Sequence record: LC765218.1
DNA from: Pseudomonas phage BRkr
DNA length: 64,000 nucleotides
Reading direction: 5' to 3' (one strand)
Under the pieces are notes generated by a model. It was not told the DNA's origin. It worked only from the letters and a program-made list of their open reading frames with translations, and made no database searches. This document shows positions 25,900 to 58,012 of the stretch, one piece after another; position 1 is the first letter of the stretch; every line of letters starts with the position of its first letter. Made by a program: the position numbers and the translations under genes.

Positions 25900-25919
25900 G
25901 CCCTCCCTTCAGGGAGGGC
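25900..25919 (+). terminator. Class-B terminator: GCCCTCCC-TTCA-GGGAGGGC + CTTTATGCCGGC (preceded by AACATAAC)
   Basis: Perfect 8-bp stem. TATG lies 44 nt upstream of gene 25966. Confidence 0.65.
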
Positions 25920-25965
25920 TTTATGCCGGCAATGGTATAGGTTTTAAGAAAGAACAGGATTACAT

Positions 25966-31410: not shown

Positions 31411-31713
31411 ATGATCGACCATACCCATGATGACTTAGTTCACCCGCGTATTACAAAAGCATACGCAAAGTCATTAATCGTAAAAGAGAAGATCATCTCT
31501 GACCCTGAAATGTTGGTGACAGTCTGCATTACTAAATTACGTAATGGCCATCGGATTGTCACCGATGCAATTGTAGCGAATAAAGCAGCATTTGATTCTA
31601 AGCGTGGAGTTGTAGTAGCCAGGCGAAAAGCAATTGAAGAAATTATTCGTTTAGAATTGTACCTCTTACGTGACAAGCTTTACGAGCATTCTAAAGGTAA
31701 TGAAAATGCATGA
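31411..31713 (+). CDS. Hypothetical protein
   Basis: 100-aa ORF with RBS GGAGGG. Its stop overlaps the next start. Confidence 0.45.
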   Translation: MIDHTHDDLVHPRITKAYAKSLIVKEKIISDPEMLVTVCITKLRNGHRIVTDAIVANKAAFDSKRGVVVARRKAIEEIIRLELYLLRDKLYEHSKGNENA

Positions 31714-32944
31714 ACACGATAACGTTCTTATTGAAGGACAACGACAGTTAGGTGAAGAGCTTGAAGCAGCTCCCGTCCGTGGAGTTCAGCTCGATCCAAA
31801 TCTGCAAGAAAAGCTACATGCTGCATTGGAGCATATTAGCACGCTAGACGATCTACGTTCTACTATCCGTGCCGAAGGTGTTAGTTCGCATGATATCACA
31901 GCTCTTCGTGGTATCCATAGTTCCATGGAAGCTATTGGTTTGAATGTGCCAGTACTACCATCTCTGGAAAACTATAACGCTCTATTCACGCCCACACGTA
32001 CTAGCTTGAATCTAAAGGTTTCTAATGAAGCTATTGGTTCGGCTATTATGGCTACCATTAAAGAATGGTTCCATGTACTGGTTGACTTTATTGTAAAGAC
32101 AATCCGTTGGGTTAAGTCAGTTGAGATGAATGACGAAGTGATCCAAGGTAGGATCGTTTCTATTAACGAAAAAATCGTTAAATTAGAATCCAACTGGAAA
32201 GAGATGCAAGCTTTGAACCGTTTGGGTAATCGTAATCTTGATCGTAAGTATTACGAAGCTGCCGAAGTGGTTCTACTTGATCCTAAGCTACCCCGCTCCG
32301 ATATCGGCCTGTTGGCTTTTGGTGTAGATGATGATCTTCGTCGAATCCGAAATATCCAACAAGAAGCACAAAAATTTGGTGCACAACTGCTGGAGCAAAT
32401 TCGACAGCTTCGTCAAGTAATGGACCGCTCTCGTTTAGAACTTGGCTTTGAATCTCATATTGGACCACGACTACAGTCTCTGGCAGAAACGCTGAAGAAC
32501 ATGGATAGTCAGTCTGACGATCCTAACTTCTATATCAAACACAAACGAGTTGGTATTCGTTTCTTTGAAGATACTAAACGCATGTTAAAGCGTGAGCCAA
32601 TTACATATAAGTTCATCTATGAGCTCTATGGTAAATGTGCAGACGAACTGCGTAAAGTGAATCGATTTGATCTAGAAGAATCTGTTGTACCACTTCCTAA
32701 ACTTCAGGCTGTTATTGCCAACGTTAACGCTGGTATTGAAGCACTGAATGACATGGTTAAGGTATTCAGCCGTATTCCTCTTTATCAGTACAAAGCTGGT
32801 GCAACATATGCCAACTTCTTCATCAAGGCGCACGACATCGTTCGTGAGGATTTCTATGCTCATGTCGCAAGTGACGTAGCTAATGCCGCCTGGGATAAAC
32901 TGATTAAGCGTTTTGAAGATATCAAACGTGAGCTTGGTATTTGA
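31706..32944 (+). CDS. Member of paralogous acidic virion-protein family (see 41005-51510)
   Basis: Start set at ATG 31706 (MHEHDNV) with AAAGG 10 nt upstream; the ORF track gives 31670. Shares the family motif ALEHISTLDDL…ITALRGIHSSMEAIGLN…SLENYN, cf. ALEAYSGLLRQ…AAFLRVGIKQAERVLG…GLENYN in 46277-47710. Confidence 0.6.
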   Translation: MHEHDNVLIEGQRQLGEELEAAPVRGVQLDPNLQEKLHAALEHISTLDDLRSTIRAEGVSSHDITALRGIHSSMEAIGLNVPVLPSLENYNALFTPTRTSLNLKVSNEAIGSAIMATIKEWFHVLVDFIVKTIRWVKSVEMNDEVIQGRIVSINEKIVKLESNWKEMQALNRLGNRNLDRKYYEAAEVVLLDPKLPRSDIGLLAFGVDDDLRRIRNIQQEAQKFGAQLLEQIRQLRQVMDRSRLELGFESHIGPRLQSLAETLKNMDSQSDDPNFYIKHKRVGIRFFEDTKRMLKREPITYKFIYELYGKCADELRKVNRFDLEESVVPLPKLQAVIANVNAGIEALNDMVKVFSRIPLYQYKAGATYANFFIKAHDIVREDFYAHVASDVANAAWDKLIKRFEDIKRELGI

Positions 32945-32982
32945 CAACATAAAGCCCGGCATTGAGCCGGGCTTTATGTCGT
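32944..32982. terminator. Long bidirectional palindromic terminator ACAACATAAAGCCCGGC-ATTGA-GCCGGGCTTTATGTCGT
   Basis: 16 of 17 bp palindrome arms. Exactly fills the gap between convergent genes 31706-32944 (+) and 32983-35898 (-). Confidence 0.7.
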
Positions 32983-35898
32983 TTAGTTATTCAGTACTTC
33001 GTGTTTAAGGAAGTTGAATTGAACGTCGTCTTCTACAGTTAACTCTTGGTTAGCAAGAACAACAAGCTTCTTACGAATCGCGAGGCGAACAGCATCATCT
33101 TCAACTGTAAGAATGGCGTAGTTATTAGTGCCACCCAAACCGAATACCTCAAGTGCCTGTACCCCGTCACCAGACGTCGCTTCAAGTTGAGCAACTGTAT
33201 CAGACATCGATACAGTCTTACGACTGATGTATTCATTAAGTACAGACTTACCGTTAGCCATAAGGCTAGGTCGAATTGTAGTATTGGTATATTCAGCTGG
33301 TTTCAGATAGAAACTAAGAGTGAATGCTTGATCGACGGAGATGGTAGCTTTCTGACCTTCACGTACGGTAACAGTAGTATCACCATAAGTGGTAGTCGGA
33401 TAGAGATACATCTCACACATTTCAAGTAACTGTGCATCGAGGATACTGATGTCATTCTCAAGCCATGTAACGAATTCCATCGGAATTTCGACTTTGTAGT
33501 CAAGTGCCGATTTTTCATTGGCAAAGTAGAATAGTCCATCAACCATCATTAAAGTAATTTCACGTAGACGCTTACGCGGTGCAACCAAAATAGGTTTACC
33601 GTTTGAGTCTAACATTACATCGCCTTTCTGGTGCTTGCGAACCTGATTACCTTGTGCATCCAATACCGGATCACCTTTACGATGAAGTATCTCATAATCG
33701 AGAGTACCATCAGGTTTAATCGTTACAATGATGTTACCTGCTTCATCGCGTTTATATTCGTTTTCCTCATAGAACCACATTACATCATGTTCCCAGTGCT
33801 GATAAGACTCATCACCAAGTACAGTACGACTACGTCGCCACATTTTGGTCATGTCATAACCAAGTGTTGTAACTAGACGTTCACGGTTGACAACCATGAA
33901 TTGTTGTGGCAATAGGTGGGCTTGAACCATTTCATCGATCTGGTTAGGTTGATAACCAGGTGTACTCGTATTAACAACAAGGATAGTGATATCAAACATG
34001 TTATTTAGAGTACTCGCGAAATTGTTTTGCACCTCGGAGAACATCGACATGTTAGTCGTGTAGAGCTCGTTCTTGGAATTGATGTCATGATTAGTTTTGA
34101 TATCAAAAGTAAATACGCGCTCACCGTCTTCGATACCAATGAACTTACCATTAACAGAAGCCCAGCGTACTTCACCAGCTGGCTGATAGCCAATTTGAAG
34201 TACAACTTGTTCATCAGCTAGTTTCTTGAACTGCTCACCAGATTCTAAACGAACTGTAATTCGATAACCTTCATCCGTTTTAACTATATCAAAGACATCG
34301 ATAGCAGCTTGTAAATTAGCTGTGTCGTTCTCACCAACAAAAATCTTTTCGGTGATTGTTGGATTGTCTAAATAGTAGGGACGAACCTCAAAATTCTCAC
34401 GCGATGCATCTAGTACGTTATGGAAAGGAGAATACACGTAACGGCCATTGTTCATCTCACGTGCAATCTGTTCGGCAGTGCTGCCTTTTAGACGAGCAAT
34501 CTCAGCATCAGCAACGGTGTTAACACGACCATTATTGAACGTGTAGAGCATACTAGGTTTGATCGTTAATCGATCACCATTGTCCGCTACATGTATAGAG
34601 CCCGCCAAAGACTCCATATCGACTTTAAGTTGCGACATGGCTACACCAGCACCAGAAATAACATCAAGCGACCTCGGAGCTCCTAGACGCCTTGAAGCGA
34701 GGAACTGTCTATTCGTAATGTTATCGATATTGGATACGAGTGTATAACCACGCCGATTAACAGCGTCAGTAATTTGAACGTTAGTAATAGGTACTTGGTT
34801 TGCACCGAGTGTATTATTAATAACCTGATTACGGAGTACGTTAAAATCAACCGAATTCGCACCTCCTTCTACTCGACCACGTGCCAGAGATTGAATGAGG
34901 TTAAACGTTGTCAATGGAGACACATACGAGCTATCGTCATCAATAGAGTTCAGATAGAACTTAAACTGGTTTGCTTTATAAGCACCTAGATCGCGATCCA
35001 TCTTTCCTTGGGTAGTATAGATATCGATACGGATATCACCCTGTGCCATTCGTGTGTTTGTATAGATAGTTGGAATACTCACTTGGAGTTTATTACCAAT
35101 AACTTTAAACACAACGGTCAGTTCCATTGGGTCATAGACTAAAGCCGAGTGAGTCGTTTTAAGTTCCACCCAATTATCATCTTCAGTACGGCTGATGTAC
35201 GCCCGCGCATAGAAGAACTGATCGGTGAATGTATACGATTCTTGGAAAAGACTAGATGGGTTAAGAGATTCGGTATGTGTCTTTACTGCGAACTGATAGA
35301 CCGGGATGCTAAGAGAAATAACCTTACGTCGATCAATGACGAGCATAGACCATGGTACAATGTTCGTCGATAGGGTTTCCACAGGTGACTTTTTATCGAG
35401 GACATATTCGATAGTAATACCACCGTGACGCATAACCCGAATTTCAATTGGGTACTGCATCGTGAATTTAATACCAGCTGCATCAAATTCCGTTAAGCGC
35501 GGTATAACTAGTTTCTTGATACCTGTATCTCCGACGGCCACTGCTTTAGCAATAACTTCATCGTAGGCAATCAAGAAATTGAAGGTTGTTCTAGCAGGAG
35601 AAGCAAAGCGTCCAATATAGTCATCATCTGACATGTGTTTATAGAGCTCTTCACTACCCAGCGAAAGACGTGGATACAGCTGACGTCCCAATGCCTCCAT
35701 TTCACCAATTGCCATCGCGGTTTCCATGGAACCGATCTCAAGCGAGAATACAAAAGGGATAGATGCATCTGGAATATCAGCAATGACGGCTCCATTACTA
35801 GAGCCGTTCATTTGTGTATCCAGTTCATTAAGAGCGATGGTTTGCATCAACGCTGGATTACGTCGAGCACTATACATCCGTTCTTTAAACTGACTCAT
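32983..35898 (-). CDS. Large putative virion structural protein
   Basis: 971-aa minus-strand ORF. Its stop abuts the long bidirectional palindromic terminator 32944-32982. No enzymatic motif. Size and context suggest structural, possibly sheath-like, which is speculative. Confidence 0.7.
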   Translation of the reverse strand: MSQFKERMYSARRNPALMQTIALNELDTQMNGSSNGAVIADIPDASIPFVFSLEIGSMETAMAIGEMEALGRQLYPRLSLGSEELYKHMSDDDYIGRFASPARTTFNFLIAYDEVIAKAVAVGDTGIKKLVIPRLTEFDAAGIKFTMQYPIEIRVMRHGGITIEYVLDKKSPVETLSTNIVPWSMLVIDRRKVISLSIPVYQFAVKTHTESLNPSSLFQESYTFTDQFFYARAYISRTEDDNWVELKTTHSALVYDPMELTVVFKVIGNKLQVSIPTIYTNTRMAQGDIRIDIYTTQGKMDRDLGAYKANQFKFYLNSIDDDSSYVSPLTTFNLIQSLARGRVEGGANSVDFNVLRNQVINNTLGANQVPITNVQITDAVNRRGYTLVSNIDNITNRQFLASRRLGAPRSLDVISGAGVAMSQLKVDMESLAGSIHVADNGDRLTIKPSMLYTFNNGRVNTVADAEIARLKGSTAEQIAREMNNGRYVYSPFHNVLDASRENFEVRPYYLDNPTITEKIFVGENDTANLQAAIDVFDIVKTDEGYRITVRLESGEQFKKLADEQVVLQIGYQPAGEVRWASVNGKFIGIEDGERVFTFDIKTNHDINSKNELYTTNMSMFSEVQNNFASTLNNMFDITILVVNTSTPGYQPNQIDEMVQAHLLPQQFMVVNRERLVTTLGYDMTKMWRRSRTVLGDESYQHWEHDVMWFYEENEYKRDEAGNIIVTIKPDGTLDYEILHRKGDPVLDAQGNQVRKHQKGDVMLDSNGKPILVAPRKRLREITLMMVDGLFYFANEKSALDYKVEIPMEFVTWLENDISILDAQLLEMCEMYLYPTTTYGDTTVTVREGQKATISVDQAFTLSFYLKPAEYTNTTIRPSLMANGKSVLNEYISRKTVSMSDTVAQLEATSGDGVQALEVFGLGGTNNYAILTVEDDAVRLAIRKKLVVLANQELTVEDDVQFNFLKHEVLNN

Positions 35899-35908
35899 TA
35901 AAATTTCC

Positions 35909-36952: not shown

Positions 36953-36989
36953 TTTTCAAATCTCTGTGAACAAATGAAGGAAGAGAACG

Positions 36990-38174: not shown

Positions 38175-38189
38175 CCAAGGACATGACCA

Positions 38190-39083: not shown

Positions 39084-39093
39084 GGAGTTGACA

Positions 39094-39627: not shown

Positions 39628-39637
39628 GGAGGGGTCC

Positions 39638-40936
39638 ATGGTTGACTCAGTTAACCATTCCCAACCTAACGCAGTCGACGGGGTAACACCCGTCGATCTG
39701 TCCGTCTCGATTGAAGATGAATTCAACGAGTTCGATGCTTGTGCTGAAAAACTTGATAAGTTAATGATGGGGATGGAAACCATAGAGCGACTCGATACAT
39801 TTATCCAGTCTAACTATGACACAGCCAGTCCTGAGATGTTAGCTTATGCTGTTGAGAAATTCGGTCTCACTGACGTTGTCTCTACAGAAGACATTAGTGA
39901 TTCGAGCATGCAGGTTTGGGAACGTACTAAGTTAGAAATAAAGAGAGCGAATAGTGACCTATATGGCTACGCTAAAGTACTGATGGCTGGTATAGATCGT
40001 ACTGTAGAACGAATCACTATGCTTTATGAGATGGCTTCGAACTTAAATGGAACTAAACCATTTAAATCGGAGATTGAACTGAGAAAGGCAAAAAAGTTTA
40101 ATATCAATGGCGAGTTTAAACCATTGGATATTCGACCTGTTCTGGAACAAACACAAAACACCATTGATTTCTATGATAAGGTGTTCATGCCTTATCTCAC
40201 TGCGATCGACAAAACATTCAATAATCTTACCCTTGATCAAGAGTGGACAGATGACTCCACTATTCGGTTTGAAATATTCAATGCGAAACGTTGGATGAAG
40301 GGGGCTATTGAAGTCGACCAAGACGACAGGTTTAGAGTCAATGCTACTTTGTTCCGTTCTGAGTTAACTCAGGGTAATAAGGCTCTTTATTTCTCTGGTC
40401 CGAGTGAAACTAAGACTGAGCAACTTAAAGATTGGCAGTTTATGGTAAACTCCATTCGGGACTTCCGTTTTAAGTATTACACTGTACCAGAACAGAAACC
40501 ATTAAATGAGCAAGATAACAAAGTTGAAGTGTCGAATATAAACGCTGTTCGTCAGCGTTTAGGAGTACTACTTGGGTTAGCTAAACGCTTACAATCGCGC
40601 AAAGGCTATGACCAAAAGATCTCTGCTCAACTTCGTAAACTTGAACAATCCGCTGAAAAGATTAGAGTAAAAGCTGGACAACTTCGCCAAAGTCAAGGTC
40701 GTAAAAAACCTGGCGCTGAGGAAAGAGATGAAGCCCGGCCATCCGTATCTAATGTCGTTAACGATCTAACAATGATCCTTAATAATGTCATGCGGATGAT
40801 CATTGACTATAACAACACTCTCGCTGGTATGATTCGCTTAATTGCAGGTTTGGCTATGGTAGCCGACCTTGAACTTAAGGCGTATCAGGCTCCTCTTCGC
40901 AAACCTACGGAAGAAGAACAGAAGCGTTTGGGTTGA
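39638..40936 (+). CDS. Coiled-coil protein, probable distant member of the acidic paralog family
   Basis: Start at ATG 39638 with RBS AAGGAGG 5 nt upstream; the ORF track gives 39596. Contains ETIERLDTFIQ…, resembling the family LEAY region. Confidence 0.6.
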   Translation: MVDSVNHSQPNAVDGVTPVDLSVSIEDEFNEFDACAEKLDKLMMGMETIERLDTFIQSNYDTASPEMLAYAVEKFGLTDVVSTEDISDSSMQVWERTKLEIKRANSDLYGYAKVLMAGIDRTVERITMLYEMASNLNGTKPFKSEIELRKAKKFNINGEFKPLDIRPVLEQTQNTIDFYDKVFMPYLTAIDKTFNNLTLDQEWTDDSTIRFEIFNAKRWMKGAIEVDQDDRFRVNATLFRSELTQGNKALYFSGPSETKTEQLKDWQFMVNSIRDFRFKYYTVPEQKPLNEQDNKVEVSNINAVRQRLGVLLGLAKRLQSRKGYDQKISAQLRKLEQSAEKIRVKAGQLRQSQGRKKPGAEERDEARPSVSNVVNDLTMILNNVMRMIIDYNNTLAGMIRLIAGLAMVADLELKAYQAPLRKPTEEEQKRLG

Positions 40937-40945
40937 TGACATATT

Positions 40946-40965
40946 GGGGAACCACACGGTTCCCC
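40946..40965 (+). terminator. Class-B terminator GGGGAACC-ACAC-GGTTCCCC + TTTATGCTATGTTATC
   Basis: Perfect 8-bp stem, preceded by GACATATT. Lies 37 nt upstream of gene 41005. Confidence 0.65.
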
Positions 40966-41004
40966 TTTATGCTATGTTATCTATTCACATGTCAGAGAAT
41001 CGAA

Positions 41005-43659
41005 ATGACTATTCACAATCTGAACAAACATCTTGGTGGTGGTAAAGCCACCTCCTCAAACGAAGCTATTGCTGATGGCGTAGCTCGCGAAGTACCAGTT
41101 GATACAGTTGATACTTCTGTAAAAGCCTTGGCCACTACCAAAGATCTACCAGAAAATCCAGAAGAAGGTGCTGTTTATCACGTTAACGGTGTTGACTGGG
41201 TATTCGTTAAAGGTGAATGGGTCACGCGTCAAGGTATTTATGGCCACGAAGATTTTGGCGATGCGCATGAACCTCTGTGGGATGGTACTGGTGAGAAACC
41301 TAATATCGAAACACAGAGAGCAGAATCTGAAGTTGTCCGAGAAAATAGTGATGAACCTGCAATCACTCCTGAGGGTACCAATGAGTCCACGGAACAGGTT
41401 GTAAGTGAAACTGAACAAGTTGAAGAAGTAGTTGAAGAAAACGTTACTCCTGAACCTATCGTTAATCCAGCCTCTCCTAGTGAGACTATGGAAGAAGCTA
41501 CTTCTGAAACGGAAGCCGAGAGTGAGTCAGTGGTTGAACCCACCGTACATGAACAGGTAGAAGCCCATGAAGCAGCAGCTAACCCCATCGAAGAGATTGA
41601 GGAAAGCGAGACCCAGGAAGAAGAGAAACCCTCGACAGAAAACGTTGACGGGGAACCTCTAGCTCATCCCGTTGAAGAAGATAAGCCTGTTGAAGTAATG
41701 GAACCTTCTGATGTGGGTATGTGTGAAGAAACTATGTTGGCACATGATCGCATCGGTCAAGTGGCGAATAGTATCGATCAGTTGCATACAGCACAGACTG
41801 CTCTAGAAGCTTATCACGATGTCGTTAAGACTGGTCGTGTATCTAAGCAATCTGCCGCAGTACTTCATAAAGGTCTTGTTCATATTGATCGGACTTTTAA
41901 TCTCAAGGTCAAAGCAACAGGACTTGAGGCATTCGATACTACTCCTCGTTCGGCAATGGAATCTGTCGATATTGATGGTGAGACTATCACTGGACGAATG
42001 AAGCAGATCGGTGGGGCAGTCTACAAAAAGATTCAAGAACTTCTCGCCAAGCTGATCGAATACATTAAGAACTTTGATCTAAAGCGTAAACAATCTGAAG
42101 CTAAAGTAGACAAGCTGCTTTCTCAGATCAGTGATGTACCGCGCAACGCGATTCCTGAAAACGAAAAGATTAAAGTATCGAAAGCTAAGTTCTTCTATGC
42201 TGGCGGTAAATTCGTTGGCACTGATACAAGTGCAGAAGTAGCTGTTATTGATCTAGCTGTATCTGCTGCCATGGCAATGCAGTCTAACGTTGTATTCCTT
42301 GGTCAACAACTTGCTAAGATGGAAGCGACTAGTGATGGTGTGAACGAGTTCAGAAATGTTATTGAAACACGGCTGAGTCAGAACCGTGATCACGTTGAGA
42401 AAGATCTTCCAGGTGGTGGTAAAATCATTCGAGAAGGCCATGCCCTTATTCTTGAGCGTGGTGAAGATGAACATGCAGGTGAAGAACTAGATGCTCTTTC
42501 TCGTACTGATATCGAGAAAGCTTTGAAGTCACTTCAGAAGTTCTATCAGAATGCAGGTAAGTCTGACCGTATTTCTCGAATTGTAGATTCTGCTCGTACT
42601 AAGTCACAAGAAGCAATTAAAGCTGCACGTACTGGTGGTGATGAACGTTATGTTCAAGAGCTACAACAACTTTACGTTACAGCTGTAGCAGATATGATCA
42701 AAGAGATGAATCTCCAGATGGTAACTGCTCTTGTTACTTATACGTCTTCTGGTAAAGCCATGTATCTTGAAGCATGCCTTGAGAACCTTAAAGTGCAAGG
42801 TGCTGGCATGGAGTCTCACGATCCGTTCGTATTCTCTAATGAAGGCCTCTTTACCGAAATCGGTCACTTCTTCAACGCTATGATTCATGGGCGTAAAGAA
42901 GATCTTAAGCCAGAGCAGTACAATGCGGTTAAGAGCAAGATCTCTAAAACGTTTGGTGATCCGAATTGGCTGAAGAATCGTCGTTTCATTGAAGGCGATA
43001 TTAAGTTCAAAGGAGATCCTTCTCTTGGGGATAACTTCAAACAAGTAATCGCTAAGGCAGTTGGTCAACTTAACCAGGCTGCCCGTGGTAACGCAGCTGT
43101 GTTTACCCGAGCTGCTAACTCCGTTAAGCCATATACTGACTTCCTAATCAAGATGGAATATCGTAACCATCCTGAGAAGACTCAGAAAATGTACGACGGC
43201 ATGCCAAGCTTTGATAAGAATAAGTTCAAACCCGTTAAATATAACAGTGGTATGGCACATTCTTACGTAGACGTTACTCTTCCTGCAATGACTCCAGAAC
43301 AGGTAGCCTCAGCCGCAGATGAGATCATTAAAGCTATTGATTATATCACTGGCTATTGGAAAACATCTATGGGCAAAGAGTGGTGGGATACTTTCAACGT
43401 TGAGAATGAGTACGGTCTATTTGGTCGATTTATTCCAGCGCACATGGAAGGTTCCGGTAAGTACACGGATGTTATCCGTAACATTGCTACGTACACTAAA
43501 GGTGAAGACCAGAAATGGTGTGTTAAGCTTGCCAGTAAGATTGCTGAATTCGCTGATGATGGCGAAGCCACATTCTTCAAAGAAGGCGGTGGTCAGTGGG
43601 AATTCTATTTCACTTACATCCGCGGTCTAATCAACTGGATGGATGCTTCCACCCGTTAA
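41005..43659 (+). CDS. Paralogous acidic virion-protein family member 1 (inner-body/ejection-protein-like), acidic N-terminal region
   Basis: Start ATG 41005 (MTIHNLNKHLGGG); the ORF track's 40933 lies inside the upstream terminator tail. It has a roughly 170-aa Glu/Thr/Val/Pro-rich acidic region. The family motif is TALEAYHDVVKTGRVSKQSAAVLHKGLVHIDRTFN. Confidence 0.65.
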   Translation: MTIHNLNKHLGGGKATSSNEAIADGVAREVPVDTVDTSVKALATTKDLPENPEEGAVYHVNGVDWVFVKGEWVTRQGIYGHEDFGDAHEPLWDGTGEKPNIETQRAESEVVRENSDEPAITPEGTNESTEQVVSETEQVEEVVEENVTPEPIVNPASPSETMEEATSETEAESESVVEPTVHEQVEAHEAAANPIEEIEESETQEEEKPSTENVDGEPLAHPVEEDKPVEVMEPSDVGMCEETMLAHDRIGQVANSIDQLHTAQTALEAYHDVVKTGRVSKQSAAVLHKGLVHIDRTFNLKVKATGLEAFDTTPRSAMESVDIDGETITGRMKQIGGAVYKKIQELLAKLIEYIKNFDLKRKQSEAKVDKLLSQISDVPRNAIPENEKIKVSKAKFFYAGGKFVGTDTSAEVAVIDLAVSAAMAMQSNVVFLGQQLAKMEATSDGVNEFRNVIETRLSQNRDHVEKDLPGGGKIIREGHALILERGEDEHAGEELDALSRTDIEKALKSLQKFYQNAGKSDRISRIVDSARTKSQEAIKAARTGGDERYVQELQQLYVTAVADMIKEMNLQMVTALVTYTSSGKAMYLEACLENLKVQGAGMESHDPFVFSNEGLFTEIGHFFNAMIHGRKEDLKPEQYNAVKSKISKTFGDPNWLKNRRFIEGDIKFKGDPSLGDNFKQVIAKAVGQLNQAARGNAAVFTRAANSVKPYTDFLIKMEYRNHPEKTQKMYDGMPSFDKNKFKPVKYNSGMAHSYVDVTLPAMTPEQVASAADEIIKAIDYITGYWKTSMGKEWWDTFNVENEYGLFGRFIPAHMEGSGKYTDVIRNIATYTKGEDQKWCVKLASKIAEFADDGEATFFKEGGGQWEFYFTYIRGLINWMDASTR

Positions 43660-43664
43660 AGCAT

Positions 43665-43682
43665 GGGGAGCTTCGGCTCCCT
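43665..43682 (+). terminator. Class-B terminator GGGGAGC-TTCG-GCTCCC(T) + TTTATGCTATG
   Basis: UUCG loop. Lies between paralog genes. Confidence 0.6.
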
Positions 43683-43718
43683 TTATGCTATGTAAACTAA
43701 TTCTATTTCGAGGCTAAC

Positions 43719-44981
43719 ATGCTTGACACTGAAATGCCCTGTACTGTAAATACAGAACCTGCTGAAACAATCATCGAACCAGCGGAAGATATCCAGGTAG
43801 AGATTGAAGACGTATCTGATTTCCAAAACGATGTAGCTGAACAAGAAGTTGTAGAATCCGAAGACCTCGAAGGTGTCGCTGAATCTCTAGAAGCTTATTC
43901 TCAACTCCTTAAACAAGCTGGTGACAAAGGTATCACTAAACAATCTGCTGCAATGATGCGAATTGGCATGAAACAGATTGATGCGCGGCTCAATATCAAA
44001 CGAGAAGCACTTAGCCTGGAAGGCTTTAAAACGTGCACTATGCGCGATGGACTACAAACCACTACTGTTTCCATGGAAGATGTCAAAGAGCGCGTTAAAG
44101 AGCTTGGTAAGCGCATTGTAGAGTTCATTGCTAGGCTGATTGAACGAGCGAAGGCGATTTACCAAAAACTGGCTGGTCCTAAAGTTAAAACACAAAAGGC
44201 AGCACAACAACTAATTGCTGCTTCTCGTGCCTTCCCTGCTTATCCTGGCGGTAAGATGCGTGGCTCTGTTCCAGAAAATGTTTCGGAAGATCTTAAGAAG
44301 AAAGCTGCTGAGATTAAAGAGCGTAAAGGTGATATCGACGAAGAATCTAAGAAGATTCGTATTGAAGATACCACTAACATTGTTGCCGATGGAGAGAACA
44401 CTTACGACACCATCGCAACTGAAAAGGCTTACGCTGTATTCCTCTACGATCGTCTTCCCAAAGCACTAATGTCCGTGATGAAATTTGCCAAAGATAATGT
44501 TGGTAAAGGCGATGCTTCTGAATATATTGAAAGTGTTCTAGATCACACCCACAGTGAAATGACAAAAGTTGTTCAAGCCTCTATCGGTCAAGATTTCCTA
44601 CCCGGTAGTATCCGTCTTTCGTGGGATATGGAAAACCTAGGCTTTAAGATTATTCATGGTACTGACTCGAATGGACCTATTGAGGTTGATCTCCGTCCAG
44701 CAAGTGCTATCACTAAATTTGCTCAGGAATGTGAAACTGTTCTAGCTGTCATGACCGATGATGCATCTGTAAATCGGCACAATGGTGAACTTCAACAGCT
44801 ATCGGACTCCCTCGGTGCAAAACTAGTGACTGAGCTGGACGACCCAGCTGTATTTGGTGCCATCACAAGTCTAATCACTAAGATCCGTTCTCTCGATGTT
44901 CTTGCTCAAGTTGAACGTCAGATTGTTACCTCTGTTTTTGCGAAACTAGCTATCGCTAAACACGAGCTAACTAAGTACTAA
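43719..44981 (+). CDS. Paralogous acidic virion-protein family member 2
   Basis: Carries the family motif SLEAYSQLLKQAGDKGITKQSAAMMRIGMKQIDARLN after an acidic N-terminus. Hairpin plus TTTATGCTATG lies 30-35 nt upstream. Confidence 0.65.
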   Translation: MLDTEMPCTVNTEPAETIIEPAEDIQVEIEDVSDFQNDVAEQEVVESEDLEGVAESLEAYSQLLKQAGDKGITKQSAAMMRIGMKQIDARLNIKREALSLEGFKTCTMRDGLQTTTVSMEDVKERVKELGKRIVEFIARLIERAKAIYQKLAGPKVKTQKAAQQLIAASRAFPAYPGGKMRGSVPENVSEDLKKKAAEIKERKGDIDEESKKIRIEDTTNIVADGENTYDTIATEKAYAVFLYDRLPKALMSVMKFAKDNVGKGDASEYIESVLDHTHSEMTKVVQASIGQDFLPGSIRLSWDMENLGFKIIHGTDSNGPIEVDLRPASAITKFAQECETVLAVMTDDASVNRHNGELQQLSDSLGAKLVTELDDPAVFGAITSLITKIRSLDVLAQVERQIVTSVFAKLAIAKHELTKY

Positions 44982-44988
44982 CATAAAT

Positions 44989-45006
44989 GCCCTCCCTATG
45001 GAGGGC
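44989..45006 (+). terminator. Class-B terminator GCCCTC-CCTATG-GAGGGC + TTTATGACTGCTATGCC (preceded by AACATAAAT)
   Basis: 6-bp GC stem. Lies between paralog genes. Confidence 0.55.
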
Positions 45007-45055
45007 TTTATGACTGCTATGCCAAATTCTATGTTTAACATAACGAGAAATCAAA

Positions 45056-46216
45056 ATGGACACTCGTCAGAATCCAGCAAATCGCCCGCAATTAAAAGAT
45101 AGTCCTCAGGAAGAACTTCCGGATATGATCGTCAATGATCATGAACAAGAATTCAAAGATTTGTTTGAAGCCCATATCGCTATTGAAGCTTATCTTGATC
45201 AATTAACTGATGCAGGTCGAGATGGCCTAAGTTTACAAACTCGTAAGTTCATGGCTATTGGTCTTGAGCATATAGACCGTATTCTTGGTAAACAAGAACG
45301 TGTATCGATTGAAGCACTTCTTACTGATCCAACTATTTCACAAGAGTCACTAGTTGATCGTTTAAAAGAGGTGGGTAGAAAAATCCTTGAGCTCATCGAA
45401 AAGATAATCGATGAAGCTAAACTACTCGCGCAACGTGTTATCTCTGGTATCAGCTCAACTGAAAAGAAAACAGAAGAGCTTCTTAAGTTAGCTCAACAGA
45501 GCAGCAATAAGAAAGCCAGTATGGAATTCCATGACAACGGTACAACTATCACTGTTAATGGAGCTTCCAAGCTTTTTGCAGGCTCTGAGTTCTGCCTGGA
45601 TGATTTCAAAGCTGAAACCACTGTAATGAAGTTCTTCATTAATACTTACCCGAAGTACCTTGTCGATAATATTAATCGGCTATGTAAGTCCATTAAGAGT
45701 TACGATGTAGAAACTGGTGATATCACGACATTTGAAGCGAACTCGGAATTCATTGGTAAGCATACCAGTATTATTCATCCGCTCAAAGATGTTGTTCTAC
45801 CGGGTAACTATGTTATCCATTTCCGCGACGTATCTCTTCTACCAATGGTCATCCATGATGAGGATATGACCAGCGGGCCAGAAACATATGAACATCCAGT
45901 GCGCAGTCGATTGGAAATCCAAAAGACTCTTAAACAGAATCTGGTCGTTACAAATAGCCTTGGTGAACTCTTTAAAGAGGAAGCTAAGGTACTTGAGCAA
46001 ATGAAATGTCTAACCAAAGATCTTATTGCATTGGAAGATCGTCGTGGTGAGACAGTATGGAAAAGATCTCGGGATGCTCTAGATCGAGTGTCTAGTATTG
46101 TAATGGATCTTATTCCGAAATTACGGCCGAACTATGGTCCAATTGTTGCACGTATTAATGCTATCACTAACATTCGAAATAAAGTGTGTGAATTAGAGCT
46201 CAGTGCGACCTCTTAA
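45056..46216 (+). CDS. Paralogous acidic virion-protein family member 3
   Basis: Carries the motif AIEAYLDQLTDAGRDGLSLQTRKFMAIGLEHIDRILG. A hairpin plus TTTATGACTGCTATGCC lies upstream. Confidence 0.65.
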   Translation: MDTRQNPANRPQLKDSPQEELPDMIVNDHEQEFKDLFEAHIAIEAYLDQLTDAGRDGLSLQTRKFMAIGLEHIDRILGKQERVSIEALLTDPTISQESLVDRLKEVGRKILELIEKIIDEAKLLAQRVISGISSTEKKTEELLKLAQQSSNKKASMEFHDNGTTITVNGASKLFAGSEFCLDDFKAETTVMKFFINTYPKYLVDNINRLCKSIKSYDVETGDITTFEANSEFIGKHTSIIHPLKDVVLPGNYVIHFRDVSLLPMVIHDEDMTSGPETYEHPVRSRLEIQKTLKQNLVVTNSLGELFKEEAKVLEQMKCLTKDLIALEDRRGETVWKRSRDALDRVSSIVMDLIPKLRPNYGPIVARINAITNIRNKVCELELSATS

Positions 46217-46276
46217 CCAATTCTATGGTTATTAACAATCATCATCGCGCGATGATTCTCCTCCGAGGAAAATGTA

Positions 46277-47710
46277 ATGCTACGATCCATTCATAAATAC
46301 GTCGGTTCTCTAGAAGAATTCAAAGAAGAACCGATTACTCCAGAAGTTGCTGCTGTTGCAGAAGCTCCTTTGGAAACACAAGAAGTAGAAGTCATCGAAG
46401 CACCGACCAATGTGGTCGATGAGGCTCCTGTTGAATTACCCGTTCCGACACCTGTACCCGAAATTGGTGCAGTTGGTACCGATACTGTTGTAGAAACCGA
46501 GCCGGTTGAAGTACCTGCTGAGATTGCTCCTATCGAAGGTCCAGTTGACGTTACTGAAGCTGTTGGTGAAATCGATGCTGTATCGCATGCTCACGTTGAA
46601 AAAGAAATCCTTGAACAACGTGCAGATGAACTGATTGAAACGCAACATGCCCTTGAAGCGTATTCTGGTCTACTGCGTCAAGCTCGTGGGGAGATTTCTC
46701 AACAGACGGCAGCATTCCTTCGTGTTGGTATTAAACAAGCTGAACGTGTTCTTGGTACTAATCAAGTATCCACAGGACTTGAAAACTATAATGCCGGCGA
46801 ACGTTCTGATATTCTTCGTGCAGAAATTTCTGTAGAAGATATTAAAGAATACGCCAACAAGGCATTTGAGAAACTGAAAGAAATCATCGAGAAGATCATT
46901 GACGCCATTATTGGTGGTATCGATAATCTGATGAACGGTATCTCCAAAGCAGATAAAGTTGTCACTCAACTCGAAGAGATTCTTGCTTCTGGTGGTAATC
47001 TCTGGACCGGTACAGGTAAGACCTTTGTTCTTAACAATCCGGCACCTGTCTTTGCGAATGGTAAATCCAAACTTGGTGATACCAAAGTTCTCAGTGGTCT
47101 AGCTCATTTCTCGGCTTACGTATACCCGGCCGCTGTTAAGAAATACTACGAGAACCTTGCTAAACTTATTAGCGGTTATAACGTAGTTAAAGGTGATGGC
47201 GAAGAGATGTCGGAGAAGTTGTACAAAGCTACCGCTCCTCTTGATGACATCTACGGTGCAAACTACGATATCTTCCCTGGTAACATGCGTGTTGAACTTC
47301 AAGCAGACGGTATCGTTTACGGTATTGGTCCAGCCACTTCTGCCAAAGAAGCACCGGCGGAATTTGAAGTTAAAGTATCCAGTCCAAGTACTCTGCGTAC
47401 CAATACGAAACGCCTTCGCGATATCATCGAGATTCTGAAAGCAGCTCGCGATGAACACGTTAAGATCAAAGAAGGTGCTGAAGCCCTTAAGAAAGCAGTT
47501 AGTAAAATCGAAGATCAGCTTAACAATGAAGATCTCGACGATGCATCTAAAGCTGCTGCTCGAAAAGTAACTCAGACTGCACTGGAACTGATTCGTGAAT
47601 CCAACCCGCGTTCTCGTGAAATCATCCGGTATGTAACCCGTACTGTTGTTGCATACGCTTCTGTTTATATTCAAGAAGCTAAGCTGCATAAAGAGCCGGC
47701 TAAAGACTAA
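46277..47710 (+). CDS. Paralogous acidic virion-protein family member 4
   Basis: The N-terminus MLRSIHKYVGSLEEFKEE parallels MLKNIHKYITSLEDFAES of 48976-51510. Carries the motif ALEAYSGLLRQARGEISQQTAAFLRVGIKQAERVLG. Confidence 0.65.
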   Translation: MLRSIHKYVGSLEEFKEEPITPEVAAVAEAPLETQEVEVIEAPTNVVDEAPVELPVPTPVPEIGAVGTDTVVETEPVEVPAEIAPIEGPVDVTEAVGEIDAVSHAHVEKEILEQRADELIETQHALEAYSGLLRQARGEISQQTAAFLRVGIKQAERVLGTNQVSTGLENYNAGERSDILRAEISVEDIKEYANKAFEKLKEIIEKIIDAIIGGIDNLMNGISKADKVVTQLEEILASGGNLWTGTGKTFVLNNPAPVFANGKSKLGDTKVLSGLAHFSAYVYPAAVKKYYENLAKLISGYNVVKGDGEEMSEKLYKATAPLDDIYGANYDIFPGNMRVELQADGIVYGIGPATSAKEAPAEFEVKVSSPSTLRTNTKRLRDIIEILKAARDEHVKIKEGAEALKKAVSKIEDQLNNEDLDDASKAAARKVTQTALELIRESNPRSREIIRYVTRTVVAYASVYIQEAKLHKEPAKD

Positions 47711-47716
47711 GACATA

Positions 47717-47740
47717 GACGGGGCTCTTCGGAGTCCCGTC
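47717..47740 (+). terminator. Class-B terminator GACGGGGCTC-TTCG-GAGTCCCGTC + TTATGTTCAGGAG (preceded by AGACATA)
   Basis: 10-bp stem with one G-U pair. UUCG loop. Confidence 0.65.
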
Positions 47741-47759
47741 TTATGTTCAGGAGTTAACA

Positions 47760-48881
47760 ATGGAAACAGAAAATATTCCCCTAGATGTGGAATCTAATCC
47801 ACCCGAGGAAATCGTCGTATTCGATGACTCCCCTGCGGCATTGAGTGCGCTACTTGAGAAAGATGAAGTTACTGCTAATCGTATTCTTGATCTAATTGGT
47901 GGTTTTGAAAATTATCCAATGTTTGAAAGAGAATCACATCTACTAGATCTCGGTTGTGAAGATTTCAAAGGAACCGTTGTAGGTATTCTTGATAAAGTCA
48001 TTGCATTTCTAAATCGAATTATGGAAGATATGTTCGATGGTAGTCTAGCTTTATCTCTAGCATTTGACAATATCCTTCTTCGAGTAGAAGAACTTAATAC
48101 GTTAACACGTACTACTGCACGCCGTTCAAAGGAACCGACCTTTGATGTGACTACTCGAATTCAAAATCTTTGTGTTCGTTATAAAGCCATCAATGAAGTA
48201 CAGGGATTGATTGCAAACCTAAAGAACCTTGAGCAAATTGGGAAACAGTTCTTTGATTACAATAATGAAGAACTTATTCGTGCAGCATTCCATATCCCAC
48301 AGCGCATTACAACCGCTGAGGAATTAAATAAACTCGTTGAAACAATCATGTTATCCAACCCGGTTAAAATGGTTTCTTCTAATCCACTTTATAGTCATCG
48401 TGGATATCGGCATGAGTCTCTTCACCTGATGGGTAATTATCAGGTCGTAGTTCTTGACAAATCGCCAGAAGCAACTGGTATAGATCGAATGTTGGGTATC
48501 AGTGTTAAACTAGATAACTCTGAACGTGATCCTTTGCCCCTTCCAGATTTAATTAAATTTCAACATTTCTCTGGACCTGTACAGATTACTGTATTGCGCC
48601 AAGTAGAGAAGATGGCCGAGATGTTTAACCGTGCAAGTGGTATGAGTATCCGTCATCGTCGGAAAGAACGTATTCGATCAATGTTGAATATTGTCAAAGG
48701 TATTCGTAATCAGATTGTCAATGATCAAGTTGAGGGCGCAGATGAAGCAATTCTACGTCAGTTTGTTGAAGTACTTGAGCGCTACATTGATTGGCTTGCT
48801 AATCCTTACTTGGGTATCTTGGCTCTTGCCGGGCGTAATCTTAACGCTGTTCTTAATGTATGTCGTTCCAATATTAAGTAG
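47760..48881 (+). CDS. Hypothetical protein in the paralog array (weak family resemblance)
   Basis: 373-aa ORF with RBS AGGAG. Hairpin plus TTATGTT lies 18 nt upstream. Confidence 0.6.
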   Translation: METENIPLDVESNPPEEIVVFDDSPAALSALLEKDEVTANRILDLIGGFENYPMFERESHLLDLGCEDFKGTVVGILDKVIAFLNRIMEDMFDGSLALSLAFDNILLRVEELNTLTRTTARRSKEPTFDVTTRIQNLCVRYKAINEVQGLIANLKNLEQIGKQFFDYNNEELIRAAFHIPQRITTAEELNKLVETIMLSNPVKMVSSNPLYSHRGYRHESLHLMGNYQVVVLDKSPEATGIDRMLGISVKLDNSERDPLPLPDLIKFQHFSGPVQITVLRQVEKMAEMFNRASGMSIRHRRKERIRSMLNIVKGIRNQIVNDQVEGADEAILRQFVEVLERYIDWLANPYLGILALAGRNLNAVLNVCRSNIK

Positions 48882-48975
48882 GCCTTGGCGTTCAATAATC
48901 TGAAACAGTGTTTCGTCCATGAGTAGCGTTTAGGACGAATAACGCTACTCGTATTCTGTACAGAAGGTAAACAAC

Positions 48976-51510
48976 ATGTTGAAGAACATTCACAAATATA
49001 TCACCAGTCTTGAAGACTTCGCTGAGAGCTCCACCGAAGTTGAAGATAAGCCTGTTGAAACTGTAGATGCTACTAATGTAGAAGCATCCGCAGAACCGGA
49101 AAGCGATGTAGTTGAAGCAGGCGATGAACTTGCGCAAGCTACCCCCACTGAAGAAGTAAAACCCGATGGTGATCTGGAAACGGTAGAAGAACCTCTTGCT
49201 GGTGAAACCAGTGAAGAGCCGTCTGGTATTCCAGAACCTATGGCTACTACCAATGAATCTGCGGCTGAGGCCGCTGCTGCTCAAGCTGAAGAAGCACAAG
49301 CTGCCGAAGTGAAAGAACTCACTGAACAGGCCGAACAGATTCAAGCAACCCAACAGGAAACTGTTGAAGCAGCCGCGGCAGATGCTGAGGCCATCGAAGC
49401 CAACGAGACAGATGTAAATGGTAACACTGTACCTGCTGAAGATACTACTGGTGAACAAAACGTAGATATCACTAATAGCGGCGGTGCTGGTGAAACCGAA
49501 CTGACTAACGATGTTGAATCTCTTGATACCGAAACTACTGTCGATGACGGTGGTGAAACTGCTACCGCTGATACCATCGGTGAAGAACCGGAAACCCCGG
49601 TTGAAGAAGTAGAAGAGACTTCGGAAGCAGAGATTGAAGAAGTAGCTGATGTCAGTGATGCTGCCCCTGAACTCGACAACACTGAGCCGGCCACTGTAGA
49701 AGGTGGTGAAACTCAGGGTGGTGATGAAGAACTACCTGAGTTAGAACCGGAAGCTCAAACCGAAGCAAATGATCAGGTGGATGGTGTTTCTACCCCTGAA
49801 GTTGAAGAAGGCGCTGACGAAGTCACCGTACCCGAAGTCGAAGAGTCTATCGCGGAAACTACCGAAGAAGAAGTTTCTGAAGATGTAGCTGAAACGGAAG
49901 AAGTCAACGAAGAAATCGCTGAAGATTCCACTGATGATATTCCAGCTGAAGAAACTCCAGTTGAAGAACAAGTGACTGAAACTGAAGAATCTACTGTGGA
50001 AGAAATTCCAGCAGAGGAAGAACCAGTAGTCGAGGAAACTGAAGTCGAAGAAGAAACACCGGCGGAAGTGGAAGAAACTCCTGAAGAAGACATCGTCAAC
50101 GAAGAGGAAACTCCTGTTGAGACAGAAGCGGAGGTTGTAGATGAACAAGTCGAAGATCAATCCGAGTCTACCGATGAGACTACAGATGTCGCTGAAGACG
50201 AACCAGTCCTCGAAGAGATCGAAGAAGACGAACCCGATGGAGAAATCGATGATGACGGTGAAGCTAACTTCGATGAAGGTGAACTGGATATCGAGGACGT
50301 TGACACTGATGTCACTGAAGACGATGTAGCCGAAGCCGTAAAAGAAGCCGATGAGGCCGAAGAAGAAGCCGATGCTGATGAAGAGGAAGCGATTGATGCC
50401 AGTCGTACAATCGAAGATCTTCAGAAAGAGAAGGAGTCTGTAGAAGGCTTCATGGAGATTCTGAAATATGGTCTCTCTCAAGAAAGCTATAGTGTTCAAA
50501 CTCTTATCCTGAGTCAAGTTAAACTTGATGAACTCAAGAAAGCATTTGGTGACTATGCTCCTTCCGTTCCTTCGATGGAGCAATATGGTAAAGAAGATCT
50601 CGATAAGTACTATGCTGCTAGTCTTGAGTCTTTCCGCGGTTTCCTTAGTCGTATTACCGGTCTGAAGCGTGCACTGAACGAGAAGTTGATTAAATGGTGG
50701 GAAGGTCCCCTCGTTACTAAAGTTAAGAAGCGTTCTCAAGCACTTAACAAAGATGTCGACCTTGCTCTGACTAAACTTGGTAAGTCCAATATCGGGCGTG
50801 AAACCGTTAAAGGTATTTCTAGCGATATGGCCACCAAAGAAACTAACCTCGTGCAAGCTGTTGCAAAAGATCTTCGTGTCACTTCCGAGATCGCTGTTAA
50901 GGGCGTTAAAGACTCTGAACGTGCACTGCAAGAAGTAGTAGGTGTCATCAACAAGGCTGTTACTGAAGGTGGTTACGATAAGACTGGTCCGCTAGTTAAG
51001 ACTGCTCTGAATATCAAACCTGCCAAGTATCCGGAAAACATGGCTAACGCTCTCATGGGTGGTTGGGCTATTGAATACGAGAAAGGCCCACGCGGTGGCG
51101 ATAGTAAGATCGAGGCTTTGGCATATACTCTGGTACCTGTCTTCAAGAAGATCAAAGTAGAGGATCGCCAAGTTAGTTTCGATGTGACCAAAGCTGATCT
51201 AGCGAACATGCTTAAGATGGCTAAGGCATACGTCGCCCTGGCTGATAAGCTTGCTGATTCCGTTGGTTCTAAAGCTATCGATGACATTATCAATCTCGAC
51301 GTTACACGCAACCGTGCATTGAGCACTGGCTCCAGTGAGTTCGATACTACTTCCCGTGCATCGGGTTGGGATGAACAAGCTGAGCTGGATGATCTGGCTA
51401 GTGCAATGCTGAAAGTGTCTTACGCGCATGTGGATGCGTATAAGTTCGTAACACAGCATGCTCTTGACGTGGCAGATGGTATTGTTAGTGTTGTTCGTAA
51501 AGCTCTGTAA
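48976..51510 (+). CDS. Paralogous acidic virion-protein family member 5 with ~400-aa hyper-acidic E/T/V/D/P-rich repeat tract
   Basis: 844-aa ORF. Residues ~20-440 are almost entirely acidic low-complexity repeats (…EETPVEEQVTETEESTVEEIPAEEEPVVEETEVEEETPAEVEETPEED…). The family domain follows. Several antisense ORFs through the repeat are artefacts. Confidence 0.65.
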   Translation: MLKNIHKYITSLEDFAESSTEVEDKPVETVDATNVEASAEPESDVVEAGDELAQATPTEEVKPDGDLETVEEPLAGETSEEPSGIPEPMATTNESAAEAAAAQAEEAQAAEVKELTEQAEQIQATQQETVEAAAADAEAIEANETDVNGNTVPAEDTTGEQNVDITNSGGAGETELTNDVESLDTETTVDDGGETATADTIGEEPETPVEEVEETSEAEIEEVADVSDAAPELDNTEPATVEGGETQGGDEELPELEPEAQTEANDQVDGVSTPEVEEGADEVTVPEVEESIAETTEEEVSEDVAETEEVNEEIAEDSTDDIPAEETPVEEQVTETEESTVEEIPAEEEPVVEETEVEEETPAEVEETPEEDIVNEEETPVETEAEVVDEQVEDQSESTDETTDVAEDEPVLEEIEEDEPDGEIDDDGEANFDEGELDIEDVDTDVTEDDVAEAVKEADEAEEEADADEEEAIDASRTIEDLQKEKESVEGFMEILKYGLSQESYSVQTLILSQVKLDELKKAFGDYAPSVPSMEQYGKEDLDKYYAASLESFRGFLSRITGLKRALNEKLIKWWEGPLVTKVKKRSQALNKDVDLALTKLGKSNIGRETVKGISSDMATKETNLVQAVAKDLRVTSEIAVKGVKDSERALQEVVGVINKAVTEGGYDKTGPLVKTALNIKPAKYPENMANALMGGWAIEYEKGPRGGDSKIEALAYTLVPVFKKIKVEDRQVSFDVTKADLANMLKMAKAYVALADKLADSVGSKAIDDIINLDVTRNRALSTGSSEFDTTSRASGWDEQAELDDLASAMLKVSYAHVDAYKFVTQHALDVADGIVSVVRKAL

Positions 51511-51523: not shown

Positions 51524-51546
51524 GCCCTGCCCTAAAAAGGCAGGGC
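51524..51546 (+). terminator. Class-B terminator GCCCTGCC-CTAAAAA-GGCAGGGC + TTTATGCCGGATCTTATG (preceded by AACAACATATT)
   Basis: Perfect 8-bp stem. Confidence 0.65.
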
Positions 51547-51588
51547 TTTATGCCGGATCTTATGATCTTAAACCATGAGGTGGTTACC

Positions 51589-57938: not shown

Positions 57939-57950
57939 TCAAACCTAAAA

Positions 57951-57973
57951 AGCCCTGGTCTTCGATCAGGGCT
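57951..57973 (+). terminator. Class-B terminator AGCCCTGGTC-TTCG-ATCAGGGCT + TTATGTCGTG
   Basis: UUCG-containing loop. Follows the macro-domain gene. Confidence 0.55.
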
Positions 57974-58012
57974 TTATGTCGTGTCAAACCAAACCCAAAA
58001 GGAAATTGAAAA

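Follow-up and report, generated by a model that had tools for sequence, protein, structure and literature searches.

In this study, we analyzed a 64,000-nucleotide stretch of the genome of Pseudomonas phage BRkr (record LC765218.1; this whole stretch is called the window here), in which eight genes between positions 31706 and 51510 had been predicted from the sequence alone to encode an expanded family of acidic, inner-body- or ejection-protein-like products. Our results strongly suggested that this array is the internal-head (inner-body/ejection) protein cluster of a Pawinskivirus phage, i.e., the counterpart of phiKZ gp86 and gp92-gp97. Judged by profile comparison, the family is real: seven tandem genes, from 39638 to 51510, are diverged copies of one helical domain, PF12699, because significant profile-profile similarity was found while the controls stayed near zero. 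The original prediction is largely correct with corrections and its interpretation is supported, by orthology, synteny, existing annotation and the literature; the feature itself is already known. The eight genes, named below by their first position, are as follows.

31706-32944, plus strand, 412 amino acids (aa): gp86-like head protein (PF25617, PDB 8y6v_G, HHalign)
39638-40936, plus strand, 432 aa: gp92-like internal head protein, PF12699 member (Pfam 4.9e-62, HHalign 97.6%)
41005-43659, plus strand, 884 aa: chimeric internal head protein (Pfam 1.7e-30)
43719-44981, plus strand, 420 aa: internal head paralog, ortholog of PhiPA3 gp098 (Pfam 1.3e-45, BLASTP)
45056-46216, plus strand, 386 aa: internal head paralog (Pfam 1.3e-48)
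46277-47710, plus strand, 477 aa: internal head paralog, ortholog of phiKZ gp95 (Pfam 4.3e-72)
47760-48881, plus strand, 373 aa: gp96-like, divergent PF12699 member (Pfam 26.7 bits, HHalign 94.5%)
48976-51510, plus strand, 844 aa: gp97-like protein (tblastn to PHIKZ097 and PhiPA3 102, HHalign 97.1%)

First, five of the eight genes passed the gathering cut-off (27 bits) of the Pfam model PF12699 (phiKZ_IP): 39638 (210.8 bits), 41005 (106.9), 43719 (156.7), 45056 (166.6) and 46277 (243.9). Thus 39638, which had been listed as only a possible member, is a strong one. Gene 47760, the other possible member, was short of the cut-off by 0.3 bit, and phiKZ gp96 itself passes it (31.8 bits). A weak cross-match was observed for 31706 (16.7 bits, E 0.0045). 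Within the window, BLASTP connected only 41005, 43719, 45056 and 46277 (E 1e-7 to 1e-17), whose mutual HHalign probabilities were 98.7-99.9%. A hidden Markov model built from the clear members added 39638 only, and no further member appeared among the other open reading frames (ORFs) of the window. NCBIfam returned nothing meaningful.

Second, all genes were compared against each other with HHalign, using one ortholog alignment per gene from eight phages and the gp84, gp89, gp90, gp98 and gp99 groups as controls. In a second round, each group was compared with a merged core profile of 21 sequences, with the following results.

gp92 group: probability 97.6%, E 2.6e-12, 303 columns
gp97 C-terminal domain group: probability 97.1%, E 6e-11, 350 columns
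gp96 group: probability 94.5%, E 7e-8, 293 columns
gp86 group: probability 88.5%, E 2.7e-6, 174 columns, N-terminal half only
Five neighboring control families: probability 2.3% or less, E 0.02 or higher

The outlying gp92, gp96 and gp97 groups thus appear homologous to the PF12699 core over most of the domain, and gp86 in part. At the level of profiles, these comparisons show that gp96-, gp97- and partly gp86-type proteins belong with the PF12699 family. The gp86 link was also seen in three reciprocal weak HMMER cross-matches at the same N-terminal profile positions, and the N-terminal half of 31706 (approximately 175 columns) appears to be distantly related to the core. Of the six genes said to share a conserved core, 41005, 43719, 45056 and 46277 were therefore joined by both BLASTP and HHalign and 48976 by HHalign, whereas 31706 shares it over its N-terminal half only. 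The alignment of the motif region refined the proposed LEAY...LENY signature to aLEaY..L..aG..giS.QsAA...g...idr.lG......LEnY, followed by iS.Ed. It was seen in 31706, 41005, 43719, 45056 and 46277 and, in diverged form, in 48976; 47760 retains the second half only, lacking the LEAY part, and the motif of 39638 has diverged.

Pairwise identities within the family are only 11-32%, and one member, 46277, has a spurious-looking match to a designed helical protein (PDB 8e55, 'SG135'), which we dismissed as helical low-complexity similarity. Such signs might suggest that the members only look related because they share a helical or coiled-coil make-up and acidic low-complexity sequence, with no common descent. 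This is extremely improbable, considering that the HHalign matches extend over the full domain (290-350 columns, E 7e-8 down to 6e-36), that five neighboring head-protein families, some of them also helical, gave E 0.02 or higher, that a specific ordered motif is conserved and that five members pass a curated Pfam model.

The identity of the phage and the position of the array agree with this assignment. When positions 41005-51510 were used as a megablast query, seven phage records covered 96-100% of it. Identity was 99.6-99.9% in six of them (phiLBG22, PA1C, phiHQ, HHBS36_1 and two records of PS119XW) and 78.6% in the seventh, HPP-Temi. The genus Pawinskivirus, of which PS119XW is the type species, comprises phiKZ-like jumbo phages of approximately 300 kb. 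Nucleotide identity to PS119XW, PA1C and phiLBG22 thus places the window in a Pawinskivirus-type jumbo Pseudomonas phage. The eight ORFs were confirmed at the predicted positions. They begin with ATG and coincide with RefSeq coding sequences of PS119XW, which are labeled 'internal head protein' or 'virion structural protein' at these exact coordinates. Public records of near-identical phages also name array genes 'internal head protein'; therefore, the array had already been sequenced and named.

To place the genes individually, all proteins were compared by BLASTP with the corresponding regions of phiKZ, PhiPA3, 201phi2-1, Phabio, HPP-Temi, Psa21 and Noxifer. The window from 29.7 to 54.6 kb is collinear, gene for gene, with phiKZ gp84-gp99. 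The positional orthologs of the array are phiKZ gp86 and gp92-gp97, PhiPA3 089 and 095-102, and 201phi2-1 gp148 and gp154-159, and each array gene had its syntenic phiKZ or PhiPA3 gene as best match. Identities to phiKZ were 26% for 31706 (gp86), 37% for 39638 (gp92), 33% over the full length for 45056 (gp94; also 201phi2-1 gp156 and PhiPA3 gp099), 30% for 46277 (gp95) and 34% for 47760 (gp96). For 48976 (gp97), tblastn gave 26% over the C-terminal 370 aa with phiKZ and 52% with PhiPA3 gp102. The ortholog of 43719 is PhiPA3 gp098, and the central domain of 41005 matches PhiPA3 gp097, 201phi2-1 gp155 and phiKZ gp94/93. The place of the array between the gp84-91 and gp98-99 head genes is conserved, and the flanking orthologs are 38-62% identical to phiKZ (48-62% for the gp89-, gp98- and gp99-type genes). 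Within the genus, identities to HPP-Temi were 73-89% for the array and 94-95% for its flanks. These lower values, seen against both phiKZ and HPP-Temi, indicate that the array genes diverge faster than their neighbors. According to the record notes, the 201phi2-1 orthologs have been found in virions by mass spectrometry.

Between the gp85-like and gp86-like genes there is also a 100-aa ORF (31411-31713), which shares 8 bp with the start of 31706. PhiPA3, 201phi2-1, Phabio, Psa21 and Noxifer all have its counterpart annotated, but in the phiKZ record nothing is annotated between gp85 and gp86.

The N-terminal regions also resemble those of known internal head proteins. The starts of 46277 (MLRSIHKYVGSLEEF) and 48976 (MLKNIHKYITSLEDF, nucleotides 48976-49020), which had been noted as almost identical, share 10 of 15 residues and follow a family pattern, M-x3-4-(I/L)-x-K/x-Y/L-x2-S-(L/V)-E-(D/E/N)-(F/Y). 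The same leader opens phiKZ gp93, gp94, gp95, gp97 and gp184, PhiPA3 gp100 and gp102, and several members in Psa21 and Noxifer. Both proteins carry S-L-E at residues 11-13, as does phiKZ gp93, which is cleaved between E13 and S14 (PMC11297242; PMC5694885). In addition, the SPN3US paralogs gp53 and gp54 have an identical 15-residue N-terminus with cleavage motifs (PMC5694885, PMC10052503). As this leader is common to phiKZ proteins and the SPN3US pair is comparable, the near-identical starts represent a known type of leader, which would be analogous to the capsid targeting sequence of T4.

Behind the leader, 46277 has an acidic E/V/P/T-rich region up to approximately residue 106 and then the PF12699 domain (residues 107-464); this protein also matches the gp93 chain of the solved structure (PDB 8y6v_K, E 1e-16). 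In 48976, a hyper-acidic low-complexity tract of 460 aa (residues 16-475, nucleotides 49021-50400; 39% D+E, 1% K+R, one aromatic residue) precedes a helical C-terminal domain (residues 476-844, nucleotides 50401-51507), which appeared remotely related to PF12699 by HHalign. The tract had been described as nearly pure acidic repeats. Its acidity is real, but Tandem Repeats Finder detected only 2-copy units of 12-21 bp; true tandem repeats were therefore rejected, and the tract is better described as compositional bias or low complexity. Every gp97 ortholog has such a tract (34-41% D+E, almost no K or R, 71-538 aa; 439 aa in phiKZ gp97). Acidic segments almost without basic residues were also present in 41005 (residues approximately 100-250), 43719 (residues 1-60) and 46277 (residues 16-106), whereas the N-termini of 45056, 47760, 39638 and 31706 are only short and mildly acidic. 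A homolog of the gp175 protease (58.8% identity) is encoded by HHBS36_1, whose array region has 99.6% identity to that of the window.

Several published observations on related phages frame how the array might work. PF12699 paralogs occur in 2-7 copies per phage and are processed by the gp175 protease (PMC5694885, bioRxiv 10.1101/2024.03.24.586471, PMC11297242), and phiKZ gp93, gp95, gp97 and gp92, which have PF12699 in common, are packaged and injected with the DNA (bioRxiv 10.1101/2024.03.24.586471). Because homologs in phiKZ-type phages behave in this way, the following course may be proposed here. The genes would be transcribed late by the phage non-virion RNA polymerase from TATG starts, several of them being separated by phiKZ-type hairpin terminators. 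The proteins would be made as precursors with a leader of the form M..(I/L).KY..S-L-E-(D/E)-F and/or an acidic propeptide without basic residues, which would target or space them in the prohead core. A gp175-like (MEROPS S80) head protease would then cut after Glu in S/A/G-x-E, and the leaders and acidic regions, removed as small fragments, would exit the head and free room for DNA. The helical C-terminal domains, now mature, would remain and form the inner body on which the DNA is spooled, before being ejected with it into the cell. Some N-terminal pieces may stay bound to the inside of the capsid, serving as cement or as parts of the vertex, the candidates being the gp184-like module of 41005 and the gp86-like 31706.

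On the other hand, some of our observations weigh against this picture. Neither 48976 nor phiKZ gp97 gave a PF12699 match with HMMER, and the place of both in the family depends on HHalign with small alignments. Structure predictions reached a pLDDT (the per-residue confidence score) of only 39 for the C-terminal domain of 48976 with its window paralogs and 36 for the C-terminal domain of 41005 alone, and therefore provided no fold-level check of the family. Literature searches for this phage or genus turned up neither virion proteomics nor cleavage data nor transcript maps. The acidic regions had been thought to be full of S/A/G-x-E sites; compared with composition-preserving shuffles, the counts were equal to or below expectation (23 observed vs 27.1 +/- 4.1 in the 48976 tract, and 8 vs 10.0 in 41005), and the N-termini of 43719, 45056 and 47760 contain none. 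We therefore rejected the density of this motif as evidence of processing, and processing of every member is not implied. Finally, phiKZ gp86 and part of gp93 are components of the capsid wall and not of the inner body (PMC11297242).

This last point raises the question of whether the cluster mainly builds the capsid wall, as inner-surface cement and vertex proteins that stabilize the T=27 shell, and is neither inner body nor ejected. Gene 31706 strongly matched PF25617 (PhiKZ_gp86; 550 bits vs a cut-off of 26, E 4e-165) and the solved gp86 chain (PDB 8y6v_G, E 1.2e-32). On these matches, it is an ortholog of the phiKZ vertex-binding minor capsid protein, and not an inner-body protein as had been predicted. 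Residues 37-86 of 41005 match gp184, a component of the vertex complex, and residues 14-84 of phiKZ gp93 have been resolved as fiber-like cement between hexamers (PMC11297242). However, what is visible of gp93 and gp184 on the shell is limited to short N-terminal pieces, the PF12699 domains not being resolved there, and phiKZ gp93, gp95, gp97 and gp92 were shown to be injected with DNA (bioRxiv 10.1101/2024.03.24.586471). A wall function complements a subset of the genes and offers no alternative for the array as a whole, and as a general explanation we consider it possible but rather unlikely.

The 48976 tract and the other acidic regions could, alternatively, be retained in the mature virion, where they would act as polyanionic spacers or DNA mimics, organizing the spool or driving ejection. 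Composition of the tract is conserved in every gp97 ortholog over the range of lengths given above, which argues for selection on the tract itself, and in SPN3US some propeptide fragments are incompletely cleared from heads (PMC10052503). Nevertheless, homologs in phiKZ, 201phi2-1 and SPN3US lose their long N-terminal propeptides to the protease (PMC5694885, PMC10052503), the tract offers 23 candidate S/A/G-x-E sites, and its length differs nearly eight-fold between genera, which is ill-suited to a fixed structural role. Retention of these regions is thus improbable. An internal-head cluster with removable leaders and propeptides remains the explanation that we favor.

Analysis of the intergenic regions revealed a GC-rich hairpin directly followed by (T)TTATG upstream of 41005, 43719, 45056, 47760 and the next gene, 51589.

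40946-40976, plus strand: hairpin, then TTTATGCTATG, upstream of 41005; phiKZ-type terminator with late-promoter TATG
43666-43692, plus strand: hairpin and TTTATGCTATG, upstream of 43719
44989-45012, plus strand: hairpin and TTTATG, upstream of 45056
47717-47745, plus strand: hairpin (one G-T pair) and TTATG, upstream of 47760; near-identical in PhiPA3 and phiKZ
51524-51552, plus strand: hairpin and TTTATG, closing the array

Such a module had been predicted before each gene, but only four of the eight have one; it is absent before 31706, 39638, 46277 and 48976, and 31706 and 39638 adjoin their upstream genes directly. In the whole window, 15 hairpin-TATG modules were found vs 1.8 expected from shuffles. 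The array modules, including the one at 40946-40976, have conserved counterparts at the corresponding positions in PhiPA3, phiKZ and 201phi2-1. They match the published phiKZ motifs, i.e., the intrinsic terminator, a hairpin followed by TTAT (PMC10914365), and the late-promoter consensus TATG, in which transcription begins at the G (PMC4666361). By analogy, we infer that they may serve to terminate and then restart late transcription. The published 30-nucleotide phiKZ terminator consensus (allowing up to 3 mismatches) detected only two sites in the window, both outside the array; the array hairpins differ from it in stem and loop lengths. A scan for sigma-70 promoters gave 23 sites vs 33 in shuffles, which is consistent with independence from the host RNA polymerase. 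The ATG at 51550 is part of the last module's TTTATG and unlikely to serve as a start codon: the gp98-like gene would start at 51589, the third ATG and Met14 of the long ORF, where the ortholog alignments begin (residue 14) and with which the RefSeq start agrees.

Upstream of 46277, a conserved AATTCTATGG is followed by a different palindrome. In this interval (46219-46256), Pawinskivirus, PhiPA3 and phiKZ all retain AATTCTATGGTT ahead of the gp95-type gene. It is likely a late promoter that lacks a hairpin in front, and in Pawinskivirus and PhiPA3 the palindrome ATCATCGCGCGATGAT comes next. Modules outside the array include 19385-19410, 25900-25925, 32952-32978 and 57950-57978 on the plus strand and 2007-2030 on the minus strand. 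Several of these are palindromic, so that hairpin and TATG can be read on both strands, e.g., between the convergent genes at 32944/32983.

Gene 41005 is a chimera, which consists of a leader, a gp184-like beta module (residues 37-86, nucleotides 41113-41262), the acidic linker, a PF12699 domain (residues 251-581, nucleotides 41755-42747) and an extra C-terminal domain (residues 601-884, nucleotides 42805-43656). The beta module is 66% identical to phiKZ gp184 (PHIKZ184) by tblastn and matches PDB 8y6v chain I (gp184, a beta-rich minor capsid protein of the vertex complex) with E 3.4e-16. Among the tblastn matches listed, each near-identical Pawinskivirus record has one gp184-like place, inside the 41005 ortholog. 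In PhiPA3, the module is carried by another gene, 096, immediately preceding the internal protein (IP) gene 097, and in phiKZ gp184 is encoded about 100 kb from the array. The module of 41005 is flanked by S-N-E (residues 18-20) and G-H-E (residues 80-82). The C-terminal domain (284 aa) matches phrog_28891 and has no Pfam or NCBIfam match; among the arrays compared, it was found only in Pawinskivirus. In Noxifer, its remote homologs (27% identity) stand alone as genes gp335/336, and in phage D6 the homolog is part of an 890-aa protein, in both cases near ribonucleotide reductase genes. Based on this architecture, the gp184-like module may be left on the capsid vertex after proteolysis at the flanking S-N-E and G-H-E, and the PF12699 domain may carry the C-terminal domain into the host as an injected effector.

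In the PA1C record (MK599315), the 41005 ortholog is annotated as two hypothetical proteins and its tblastn match falls into two pieces, suggesting a frameshift or sequencing error. The PS119XW ortholog is 9 bp shorter.

A different kind of element was observed upstream of 48976. At 48912-48952 on the plus strand, it reads TTCGTCC-AT-GAGTAGCGTT-TA-GGACGAA-T-AACGCTACTC, next to a conserved CTGTACAGAAGGTA at 48956-48969. It is unique in the window (0.11 expected). The element was located in 15 distinct sequences spanning at least five genera, each time at the syntenic position, with the gp99 alignment serving as an anchor for related loci; it is absent from PhiPA3 and Noxifer. Its outer hairpin (8-12 bp) has nine different arm sequences that keep complementarity in all cases, i.e., they covary, and is the predicted minimum-energy fold in all five sequences tested. 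The loop GGACGAA never varies, nor does the complementary TTCGTCC upstream, and the arrangement has the topology of a pseudoknot or of alternative pairing. As the linkers have only 0-4 nucleotides, a full pseudoknot is sterically doubtful, and alternative pairing or a protein-binding loop seems more likely. Rfam gave no match in the 40.9-51.7 kb region. The hairpin may act as a novel cis-regulatory RNA controlling how much of the very abundant gp97-like protein is made. That both proposals hold together, i.e., that the phage has a modular internal-head chassis, in which 41005 combines a vertex module with an injected C-terminal domain, as well as a regulatory RNA upstream of 48976, is a speculative and somewhat unlikely combination.

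Comparison with known systems showed both likeness and difference. With phiKZ gp92-gp97 (and gp86), the array shares gene order between the gp84-91 and gp98-99 orthologs, the PF12699 family, the N-terminal S-L-E leader, the hyper-acidic N-terminal tract of the gp97 ortholog and the intergenic hairpin/TATG modules. However, phiKZ has six tandem members and the window seven, protein identity is only 26-37%, and the gene at the gp93/94 position is, in the window, the 884-aa chimera with its gp184-like module and 284-aa C-terminal domain. The closest characterized relative is PhiPA3 gp095-gp102 (Miltoncavirus; 36-63% identity), reported with seven PF12699 members, which has one-to-one orthologs of 39638, 43719, 45056, 46277, 47760 and 48976. 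In contrast, the PhiPA3 equivalent of 41005 is split into 096 (leader, acidic region and gp184-like module) and 097 (PF12699 domain) without the extra C-terminal domain, and the gp97 ortholog of PhiPA3 lacks the hairpin element upstream. Family A of SPN3US (gp53/gp54) and 201phi2-1 gp155-157 are likewise PF12699 proteins, abundant in the head, with long N-terminal propeptides that the prohead protease cuts at several sites (PMC5694885, PMC10052503), but SPN3US has two members only, and BLAST does not pick up their distant similarity to proteins of the window. The T4 proteins IPI-III and Alt provide a functional analogy only: a short leader targets them to the prohead core and is cut after Glu by the head protease, and the proteins are injected with the DNA (PMC5694885), whereas there is no sequence relationship and the T4 internal proteins are small and basic and do not form a helical paralog family.

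The PF12699 family, its tandem expansion, the acidic propeptides, their processing and the injection of the proteins have been published for phiKZ, 201phi2-1, PhiPA3 and SPN3US. The array is therefore ordinary for phiKZ-like phages and has little weight as a discovery. Its use lies in the assignment of each window gene to its phiKZ counterpart and in the placement, by profile comparison, of the gp96-, gp97- and partly gp86-type proteins with the family. For specialists on jumbo phages, two leads emerged: the 41005 chimera, which joins a vertex-complex module, an IP domain and a cargo-like domain, and the structured element upstream of gp97 orthologs.

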